Shown piece by piece: positions 15,056 to 15,820 of a stretch of 64,000 nt of DNA; the first letter of the stretch is position 1, and every line of letters starts with the position of its first letter. The DNA comes from Escherichia phage vB_EcoM_JNE01. Location of the stretch: sequence record OR670491. One strand, given 5' to 3'. A program made the position numbers and the translations under genes. The notes under the pieces were generated by a model. The model did no database searches and was not told where the DNA came from. It saw nothing but the letters and a program-made list of their open reading frames with translations.

Positions 15056-15250
15056 ATGACTGACAAAACCTTTTATGATCGTATTATTGAAGACAAGGGT
15101 GTGTTTGATAAAGTAATCTATGATTTGGAACTAATGATCAAAGATTCCCCTAACCCACGAATGCGTACACAGGCTGAGTTTGCAAAAACTTACTTAGTTC
15201 AAGTTCAAGCAATTTGTGAAGCGATTAAAAAACATAACGATGGTGCTTGA
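15056..15250 (+). CDS. hypothetical protein
   Basis: 64-aa ORF, RBS GGAG. Confidence 0.35.
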   Translation: MTDKTFYDRIIEDKGVFDKVIYDLELMIKDSPNPRMRTQAEFAKTYLVQVQAICEAIKKHNDGA

Positions 15251-15275
15251 CATTACCACCATCAAAATATATAAT
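15247..15275 (+). promoter_or_regulatory. sigma70-type promoter (TTGACA-17-TATAAT)
   Basis: Perfect -35 TTGACA at 15247 and -10 TATAAT at 15270, 17-bp spacer, just upstream of the IF3-like gene. Confidence 0.6.
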
Positions 15276-15319
15276 TATTACCGTAACGAACATTATAAAA
15301 CATTGGAGCTTTTTATTAC

Positions 15320-15820
15320 ATGAAATCTATTATTGCCAACAACGACATTACTGCAAAAACTGTCCGTCTCGTTTCTGAGACTACTGATGTAGTAAGTATT
15401 ACTGTAGCACGTAATATGGCTGATGATCGTGGCTTAGATTTGGTAGTTGTTAAAGAGGGAGATATTCCTGTTGTTAAACTGGTAGACTTGAACAAGTATA
15501 TCTATGAGCAGAAACAAGCAGAAAAGGCCGCTCTTAAGAAACAGCGTCTAAATACTGTTGGTACTAAAGAAATTCAATTCAACTTCGGTACTCAAGAGCA
15601 TGACCTAGCTATTAAAGCTAAGTCTGCTATGAAGTTCTTAGGTGAAGGTAAGCAAGTTCACATTGTAATGAAAGCTGCTGGACGTGGTAACACCCAAGCA
15701 GTTGTACAAAGCAATATTTCCGCACTGGAAGAATTCGTACAACGCTTAGGTAATGTTACCTATGTACAAAAAGTTGAGTTCCAGGGTAAAAAAGTAACCT
15801 GTACTGTCAAAGTAAAATAA
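15320..15820 (+). CDS. translation initiation factor IF3 homolog
   Basis: 166 aa; collinear with bacterial IF3 as recalled: ...VRL...DLV...PVVKLVD..KY.YE.K......KKQ......KEI.F......HD...K......FL.EGK...I....GR. Confidence 0.75.

Follow-up and report, generated by a model that had tools for sequence, protein, structure and literature searches.

Bacterial IF3, the translation initiation factor encoded by infC (TIGR00168; E. coli P0A707-type; PDB 8jsg, 5lmn, and 5me0), has two domains joined by a Lys-rich helical linker, and homologs have been reported in several jumbo phages. The CBB genome paper lists IF-3 in CBB, GAP32, 121Q, PBECO4, and RaK2 (PMC5259590), a comparative study of jumbo phages names IF3 and a KTSC protein together as possible translation helpers (PMC7824862), and a survey of huge phages places both IF1 and IF3 with the genes presumed to redirect translation (PMC7162821). 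The Sharanji paper concludes that the role of IF3 in phages cannot be stated (PMC11895373), and the literature on T4 and IF3 yielded nothing usable. Here we describe the IF3 gene in a 64,000-nucleotide (64-kb) stretch of Escherichia phage vB_EcoM_JNE01 (sequence record OR670491), hereafter the window. The gene is real but already known, being annotated and discussed for this phage group; it codes for a two-domain IF3 that is maintained by purifying selection, lies behind a conserved consensus promoter, and has lost two residues of the loop that inspects the start codon (R131 and E134 in E. coli), as have its counterparts throughout the Rak2-like lineage. The gene and its parts are arranged as follows.

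15247..15252, plus strand: -35 hexamer TTGACA; TTGAC(A/T) in six of seven aligned phages, TTTACT in Muenster
15270..15275, plus strand: -10 hexamer TATAAT, 17 nucleotides (nt) past the -35; TATAAT in six of seven aligned phages, TACAAT in GAP32
15305..15308, plus strand: Shine-Dalgarno core GGAG, 11 nt upstream of the IF3 ATG
15320..15820, plus strand: IF3 gene, 166 codons, ATG start, TAA TAA stop
15338..15532, plus strand: N-terminal domain of IF3, residues 7-71; R16 and K53 kept at the positions of E. coli R25 and R66, respectively
15488..15556, plus strand: long linker helix rich in Lys and Gln, residues 57-79; carries Y62 (E. coli Y75)
15563..15811, plus strand: IF3 C-terminal (30S-binding) domain, residues 82-164
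15671..15688, plus strand: altered start-codon-inspection loop K118-A-A-G-R-G123 (E. coli R129-F-R-G-R-E134), with R131 and E134 lost

The sequence-only reading of this DNA had taken the 166-amino-acid (aa) open reading frame (ORF) for a two-domain IF3 homolog and proposed a profile search against the family, and profiles, fold, and comparison all agree with it. Both Pfam domains and the NCBIfam infC equivalog score above their cutoffs: IF3_N (PF05198) gives 60.6 bits (cutoff, 26.9) for residues 7-71 and positions 2-70 of the 70-position profile, IF3_C (PF00707) gives 46.1 bits (cutoff, 34.8) for residues 82-164 and positions 3-84 of the 86-position profile, and TIGR00168 gives 98.9 bits against 60 over the full length. 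The ORF also matches PHROG 9787, 'translation initiation factor' (E = 1e-59), and its best PDB sequence match is E. coli IF3 chain 8jsg_A (E = 2e-16). Identity to E. coli IF3 is 35% over 120 residues aligned by BLASTP and 31% by alignment, of the same order as that to other bacterial IF3s. All of the peptide strings quoted in the sequence-only reading are found in the ORF, and the span that it gave, 15247-15820, begins with the -35 hexamer's first base and ends with the stop codon. An AlphaFold model built from 18 lineage sequences (mean predicted local distance difference test score [pLDDT], 76.6, which is moderate) has a helix at residues 57-79 connecting two alpha/beta domains. The top 20 Foldseek matches of this model in the PDB are all bacterial or mitochondrial IF3s, many of them ribosome-bound chains, and its C-terminal domain superimposes on 1tig with a root mean square deviation (rmsd) of 2.1 Å; the rmsd of full-length fold matches is large because the relative orientation of the two domains varies.

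The residue comparison took in the window protein, 22 other members of the lineage, E. coli IF3, and a diverse set of 130 IF3 representatives. All of the near-universal IF3 residues are kept (R25, D52, K72, Y75, K82, K94, E95, D106, K110, F117, G121, G132, R133, and G167 in E. coli numbering), and D106, K110, G132, and R133, which are D95, K99, G121, and R122 in the window protein, are present in all 23 lineage members. Three N-domain residues, R25, R66, and Q33, are reported to touch the elbow of the initiator tRNA (PMC9723500); in the phage protein R25 corresponds to R16 and R66 to K53, and Q33 is without a counterpart. Y62 aligns with E. coli Y75, the position affected by the infC362 fidelity mutation. 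The sequence-only reading had noted that an IF3 identity would be refuted if conserved C-domain residues were lost, which for the most part is not the case: most are retained, and of eight E. coli C-domain arginines R133 stays Arg and R112, R116, R129, and R168 become Lys in the lineage, yet R131, R99, and E134 are lost lineage-wide. The phage protein also differs from E. coli IF3 in having no basic N-terminal tail, a linker longer by two residues, Asn at the position of R99, and a longer loop after KAAGRG, where E. coli has RFRGRE.

The inspection loop is where this lineage departs most clearly from other IF3s. None of the 23 Rak2-like members has a basic residue at position 131, compared to 106 of the 130 other representatives, and none has Glu at position 134, compared to 97 of 130. 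A survey of 80 IF3 loci on viral contigs in IMG/VR, found from a seven-sequence alignment, gives the same contrast: a basic 131 and Glu 134 each occur in 0/10 Rak2-like loci, in 22/22 loci of a second ClpS-linked group, and in 34/44 and 33/44, respectively, of the remaining viral loci. In these alignments, the loss of R131 and E134 is specific to the Rak2-like lineage and is seen in every member examined, and Vibrio phage 2.275.O, with the loop RLHGRA, represents an intermediate state. In a neighbor-joining tree, the Rak2-like and Vibrio-phage IF3s fall together with metagenomic sequences that have no such motif, although with bootstrap values of 18/50 and 11/50 this clade is not relied on here. 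The exhaustive search of representatives comprised 4,901 IF3 representatives, and the word-indexed protein search gave 17 close phage clusters only.

R131 of E. coli IF3 touches start-codon positions +2, +3, and +4, and an R131P substitution allows initiation at non-AUG starts, on leaderless mRNAs, and with initiator tRNAs without the three G-C pairs (PMC11775629). Position 131 is P, F, or Y in mycoplasma IF3, and KKGK replaces the motif in mitochondrial IF3 (PMC11775629). The RFRGR-E motif is functional and highly conserved but not a criterion of family membership, because mycoplasma and mitochondrial IF3s are also without it. The phage IF3 shares with these altered-motif proteins (E. coli infC R131P, mycoplasma IF3, and the mammalian mitochondrial KKGK form) the loss or alteration of the central basic residue in contact with the start codon. 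It differs in that relaxed proofreading has been demonstrated for them or tied to unusual mRNAs and tRNAs (PMC11775629), whereas unusual start codons, leaderless genes, and an initiator tRNA were not found in the window. Our searches for literature on E134 mutants gave nothing usable.

The perfect TTGACA-17-TATAAT promoter that had been noticed directly upstream of the gene is indeed exact (15247..15275): all 12 hexamer positions match the sigma-70 consensus with a 17-nt spacer, and it ends 45 nt upstream of the ATG, with transcription predicted to start at about position 15282. Six exact TTGACA-17-TATAAT sites are present in the window where 0.05 is expected, and 20 sites with at most one mismatch where 1.62 is expected, all on the plus strand; most of these 20 are intergenic and lie 20 to 50 nt ahead of an ATG (coordinates given for the set, window 24839-62205). 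The IF3 promoter is a member of this over-represented and strand-consistent set and is therefore not a chance match. It was aligned, together with its leader, among seven phages (the window, Turkey5, 121Q, Muenster, Munch, GAP32, and CBB). The -35 hexamer is off by at most one base in six of the seven (by two bases in Muenster) and the -10 by at most one in all seven; both hexamers stay in register, and the spacer and leader have diverged. Conserved hexamers amid a drifting spacer indicate that selection acts on the hexamers themselves. The IF3 start codon is ATG in all seven phages, and the GGAG-to-ATG spacing is long (11 to 13 nt in relatives, compared to mostly 5 to 9 nt for neighboring genes), which may be a built-in limit on translation of the gene. 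Transcript data for the Rak2-like phage group were not found in the literature searched. A second promoter-like site, the near-consensus TTGACA-17-TATGAT, at 15051-15079 overlaps the ATG (15056) of the upstream 64-aa gene; if active, transcription from it would begin within that gene.

Phage-borne initiation factors had been described as uncommon, which holds across phages generally, as a tblastn search finds an IF3 homolog in 88 of 50,697 phage records (a few of the 88 are bacterial DNA), but not within the jumbo-phage lineage, where IF3 is a standard annotated feature. The window protein shows 100% identity to the IF3 (XMR01896.1, carrying the annotation 'translation initiation factor IF-3') of the closest relative, the 351-kb Escherichia phage Turkey5, with the same length, promoter position, and gene order; over the 2 kb around the gene, identity is 97.9% to Turkey5 and about 76 to 78% to 35 further jumbo-phage records from Escherichia and Salmonella, including 121Q and PBECO4. 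By tblastn, identity to the window protein is 65 to 74% for 121Q-like and other Escherichia and Salmonella jumbo phages, 65% for RaK2, K64-1, and Muenster, 59% for Munch, 50 to 54% for GAP32, CBB, and Erwinia, Yersinia, and Serratia phages, and 30 to 40% for Vibrio phage 2.275.O, Atu_ph07, and huge phages. The proteins in 121Q (gp47), PBECO4, RaK2, K64-1, Muenster, Munch, GAP32 (gp313), and CBB (gp318), at 50 to 74% identity and in a family covered by PHROG 9787, agree with the window's in length, promoter position, and gene order and show no difference of substance. Two records were set aside: the IF3 of Acinetobacter phage MD-2021a is bacterial DNA by its thrS-infC context, and that of Pseudomonas phage SC_8_H2H8, whose sequence is E. 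coli-like and carries the canonical RFRGRE, was treated as probably bacterial.

The gene is maintained by purifying selection. There are no nonsynonymous changes relative to Turkey5, with 4.5% synonymous differences, and the ratio of nonsynonymous to synonymous substitution rates (dN/dS) is 0.15 to 0.25 against 121Q, Muenster, Munch, GAP32, and CBB, distances at which dS is near saturation, and about 0.11 between GAP32 and CBB. With an identity to E. coli IF3 of only 31%, the gene has therefore long been part of the lineage and is not a recent capture from the host. Its setting also differs from that of bacterial infC, with an ATG start and flanking phage genes in place of an AUU autoregulatory start and a thrS-infC-rpmI-rplT operon.

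Three neighboring genes accompany IF3 in its relatives.

15056..15250, plus strand: conserved hypothetical gene upstream of IF3, 64 aa, PHROG 15132; its TGA stop (15248-15250) lies inside the IF3 -35 hexamer
15834..16379, plus strand: gene for a 181-aa ClpS-family adaptor-like protein, extended at the N terminus by about 65 aa; begins 13 nt past the IF3 stop
16454..16999, plus strand: KTSC-domain gene, third conserved module member, by domain match and synteny

The gene order RNase H, Dda helicase, 188-aa protein, 64-aa protein, IF3, ClpS-like, KTSC, and virion protein is common to 121Q, Muenster, Munch, GAP32, and CBB, which also share the placement of the 64-aa gene before IF3 with a 70-nt gap. 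IF3 and the ClpS-like gene are probably cotranscribed. The ClpS-like window protein alone scores 18.9 bits against Pfam ClpS, for which the cutoff is 23, and a profile of seven orthologs matches E. coli ClpS with E = 3e-13; all seven match PF02617 at E <= 0.1, the best at E = 2.4e-18. An L7/L12-like identity, hinted at by the annotation of the Vibrio phage, was rejected, as the ortholog profile matches ClpS structures only and not L7/L12. Orthologs of the 188-aa (14467-15033), KTSC (16454-16999), and 529-aa (16971-18560) proteins carry virion structural annotation in CBB and 121Q, and IF3 does not; a virion-borne KTSC protein beside IF3 could act at the very start of infection.

Other large phages also carry IF3 close to Clp and ribosomal genes. 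The order in Vibrio phage 2.275.O is helicase, two small genes, IF3, bS21, ClpS-like, and KTSC, and in Atu_ph07 a ClpX-like ATPase gene lies immediately upstream of IF3. Among the 80 IMG/VR loci, 10 have IF3-ClpS-like-KTSC, 22 have ClpX (with a zinc finger)-IF3-bS21-Hsp20-ClpS (for example L065:2743-5579; loci within L024-L089), 4 have the bacterial L35-L20 context, and 44 have other contexts; L007:1483-3286 and L008:173-1995 are further loci listed for this linkage. The IF3s of Vibrio phage 2.275.O, Atu_ph07, the huge phages LR756511 and LR756501, and 66 of the IMG/VR loci, none with L35/L20 neighbors of the bacterial kind, are likewise two-domain proteins, often beside Clp or ribosomal genes, but they mostly have the canonical motif and are 28 to 41% identical to the Rak2-like proteins. 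The 22 ClpX-IF3-bS21 loci fall into 11 clusters at 90% identity, with pairwise IF3 identities down to 33%. Linkage that persists at such divergence suggests a functional connection of phage IF3 with Clp and ribosome genes; alternatively, the genes may be an ancestral block that has stayed very stable in a T4-like jumbo-phage supergroup. A description of the IF3-Clp linkage was not found in the literature searched.

The window also carries a tRNA cluster (54282-61813) that includes Leu(taa), Gly(tcc), Ser(tga), Ser(act), and a pair of neighboring Thr(tgt) genes; the ACT anticodon is unusual for Ser. The 90-nt tRNA at 57265-57354, called tRNA-Met by ARAGORN, has a CAT anticodon, an encoded CCA, and the long variable arm of a class II shape, which is unusual with a CAU anticodon, and its anticodon stem is without the initiator's three G-C pairs. 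The adjacent 73-nt 'tRNA-Met(cat)' at 57360-57432 has an unpaired acceptor stem (4/7 Watson-Crick), Rfam covers model positions 8-63 only, and its homology to tRNA-Asn of phages G17 and Sharanji ends within the gene, at 57384; it looks like a chimeric pseudo-tRNA left at an insertion edge. A weak additional Rfam tRNA match (33 bits) at 55590-55668 has no ARAGORN call. An insertion in this tRNA region is among the differences of the window from Turkey5, and an identical 29-mer, TTGACTAAATAGTTCAGTACTGATATAAT, occurs twice (57126 and 60106), on both sides of the inserted segment. The region includes a 565-aa ORF at 57440-59137 on the minus strand, opposite to nearly everything else, with tail-fiber/hydrolase PHROG matches and no Pfam match, followed by a NUMOD4/HNH homing endonuclease gene (59515-60084, plus strand). 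Phage UE-S1 in the phage collection covers 86% of the 3.4-kb stretch containing these two genes at 94% identity; other records cover at most about a third, and Turkey5 is not among the matches listed.

There are further differences from Turkey5 elsewhere in the window. The 629-aa C5 cytosine DNA methyltransferase (43566-45455) is split by an intein (Hint and LAGLIDADG), and the Turkey5 counterpart is uninterrupted (861 bp). A 257-aa ORF (6616-7389; PHROG 3532, no Pfam match) separates the alpha (4246-6564) and beta (7399-8523) genes of a class Ia ribonucleotide reductase; nrdA and nrdB are adjacent in Turkey5, with a 95-nt gap, and this ORF therefore looks like a mobile insertion.

We propose that the phage makes a working IF3 that is expressed early, escapes infC autoregulation, and acts on the 30S subunits of the host, and that it is possibly a laxer proofreader than the host factor, a reading that we favor with somewhat better than even confidence. 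The sigma-70 consensus promoter is of the host type, so the gene is probably expressed early in infection, and unmodified host RNA polymerase would read it. The product would occupy the normal IF3 site of host 30S subunits and provide IF3 function as the phage takes over, holding the subunits apart, recycling them, and accelerating the assembly of initiation complexes. Host infC starts with AUU, through which IF3 limits its own synthesis; the phage gene starts with AUG rather than AUU, and the level of phage IF3 would therefore escape this feedback. If the phage protein still discriminates against AUU, it would push translation of host infC down, leading to a gradual replacement of host IF3. 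Because R131 and E134 are lost throughout the lineage, we infer that it is likely less stringent in proofreading than host IF3.

We note, however, that several observations weigh against this proposal. The window offers no obvious class of phage mRNA in need of lax proofreading, since the neighboring genes have ATG starts and ordinary Shine-Dalgarno sites: on the matching 42-kb stretch of Turkey5, all 53 annotated coding sequences start with ATG and have such sites. The use of GTG or TTG by several genes, as read from the ORF list, is an artifact of that mechanical list, and an IF3 serving unusual start codons finds no support in these annotations. Leaderless genes were ruled out as targets, as the consensus promoters lie 20 to 50 nt or more ahead of the ATGs, with none abutting. 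Nor was an initiator-like tRNA found in the window; a phage initiator tRNA paired with a lax IF3 was rejected, as three G-C pairs are missing from the anticodon stem of both tRNA-like genes with CAT anticodons in the window. Position 131 is A, V, S, T, I, Q, or E within the lineage, and such variability looks like relaxed constraint rather than a newly selected function. The R99 position is N, T, A, or S in the lineage, and R147 is not conserved, although a lineage-invariant Arg (R142) lies four residues further on. R99 and R147 reportedly both contribute to 30S binding in E. coli, in work ascribed to Petrelli et al. 2003; as neither is kept, affinity for the host 30S subunit could therefore be lower. 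Finally, experiments on any phage IF3, whether on expression, binding, or genetics, were not found in the literature searched.

The strongest competitor is a plain supplement, in which a phage IF3 of ordinary fidelity tops up the supply of IF3 while host gene expression is off and initiation demand is high, as phage tRNAs do for the tRNA pool, with the loss of R131 and E134 neutral or compensated, for example by R142. We regard this as possible but appreciably less probable. It accommodates the retention of all near-universal residues, the conservative replacement of four of the eight C-domain arginines by Lys, and the variation at position 131, and the altered motif is evidently not a general need of phage IF3s, as those of the 22 ClpX-IF3-bS21 loci and of Atu_ph07 have a canonical RF[RK]GRE; the tRNA genes of the window, and other translation-support genes reported in papers on related phages, would also suit it. 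It fares less well with the fixation of the loss (0/23 and 0/10) of residues that are present in about 75 to 82% of the other representatives and in 22/22 of the other ClpS-linked phage IF3s, and with the finding that a single R131 substitution in E. coli suffices for a clear fidelity phenotype (PMC11775629). The protein could alternatively be a ribosome-availability factor that frees 30S subunits from hibernating or immature states in a stressed or stationary host, by splitting 70S and 100S ribosomes with RRF and EF-G or by displacing RbfA, together with the neighboring proteostasis genes. IF3 does dislodge RbfA from mature 30S subunits, which matters under stress (PMC7145577), the C-terminal domain, which prevents subunit association, shows good conservation, IF3 of other large phages sits amid ClpX, Hsp20, ClpS, and bS21 genes, and an HPF/S30EA-type protein is reported in a relative. 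These points are indirect throughout, such a role is compatible with the favored reading, and the sequence does not discriminate between the two; we consider a primary role of this kind unlikely.

A competitive inhibitor or decoy, blocking the IF3 site on the host 30S or titrating an IF3-directed host toxin or defense factor, and serving host shutoff or defense evasion instead of normal initiation, is more improbable still. The missing positive charge at R99 and R147, the loss of R131, a promoter that suggests high and early expression, and a linked ClpS-like adaptor that could remove a host factor would all fit such a role, but purifying selection has conserved both domains together with the linker and Y75, which is what a full functional cycle, not simple occupancy, would require, and a blocker of initiation would also stop translation of the phage's own genes, with their ordinary Shine-Dalgarno-ATG starts. 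That the gene is a decaying or functionless capture from a host has a negligible probability, given an ORF that is intact in 88 phage records, dN/dS values of 0.11 to 0.25, conserved promoter and synteny, and the low identity to E. coli IF3 noted above.

The working, early-expressed, and possibly laxer IF3 that we favor can be extended to a broader and decidedly tentative proposal, which we think is probably not correct in full: a phage-type IF3 without the R131/E134 loop, a ClpS-like protein, and a KTSC protein would form a coinherited takeover module, in which IF3 made early and free of feedback displaces the host factor and gives laxer and faster initiation that favors phage mRNAs. If so, Clp-mediated removal of host factors possibly helps to displace host IF3, and the IF3-Clp-bS21 linkage that recurs in large phages only distantly related to each other would mark a general viral strategy that couples control of initiation to proteolysis. 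As a gene, IF3 is ordinary and annotated in this group of phages; what goes beyond annotation is the loss of R131 and E134 and the IF3-Clp-bS21 linkage. Phage IF3s have appeared in genome papers for about a decade, and two findings make the role directly testable: the uniform loss of the arginine in one well-sampled lineage of cultivable E. coli, Klebsiella, and Salmonella phages, and the recurrence of phage IF3 genes next to those for the Clp system, Hsp20, and bS21. If the protein is active on host ribosomes, it would be a naturally occurring tool that lets a virus reset the initial checkpoint in bacterial protein synthesis.

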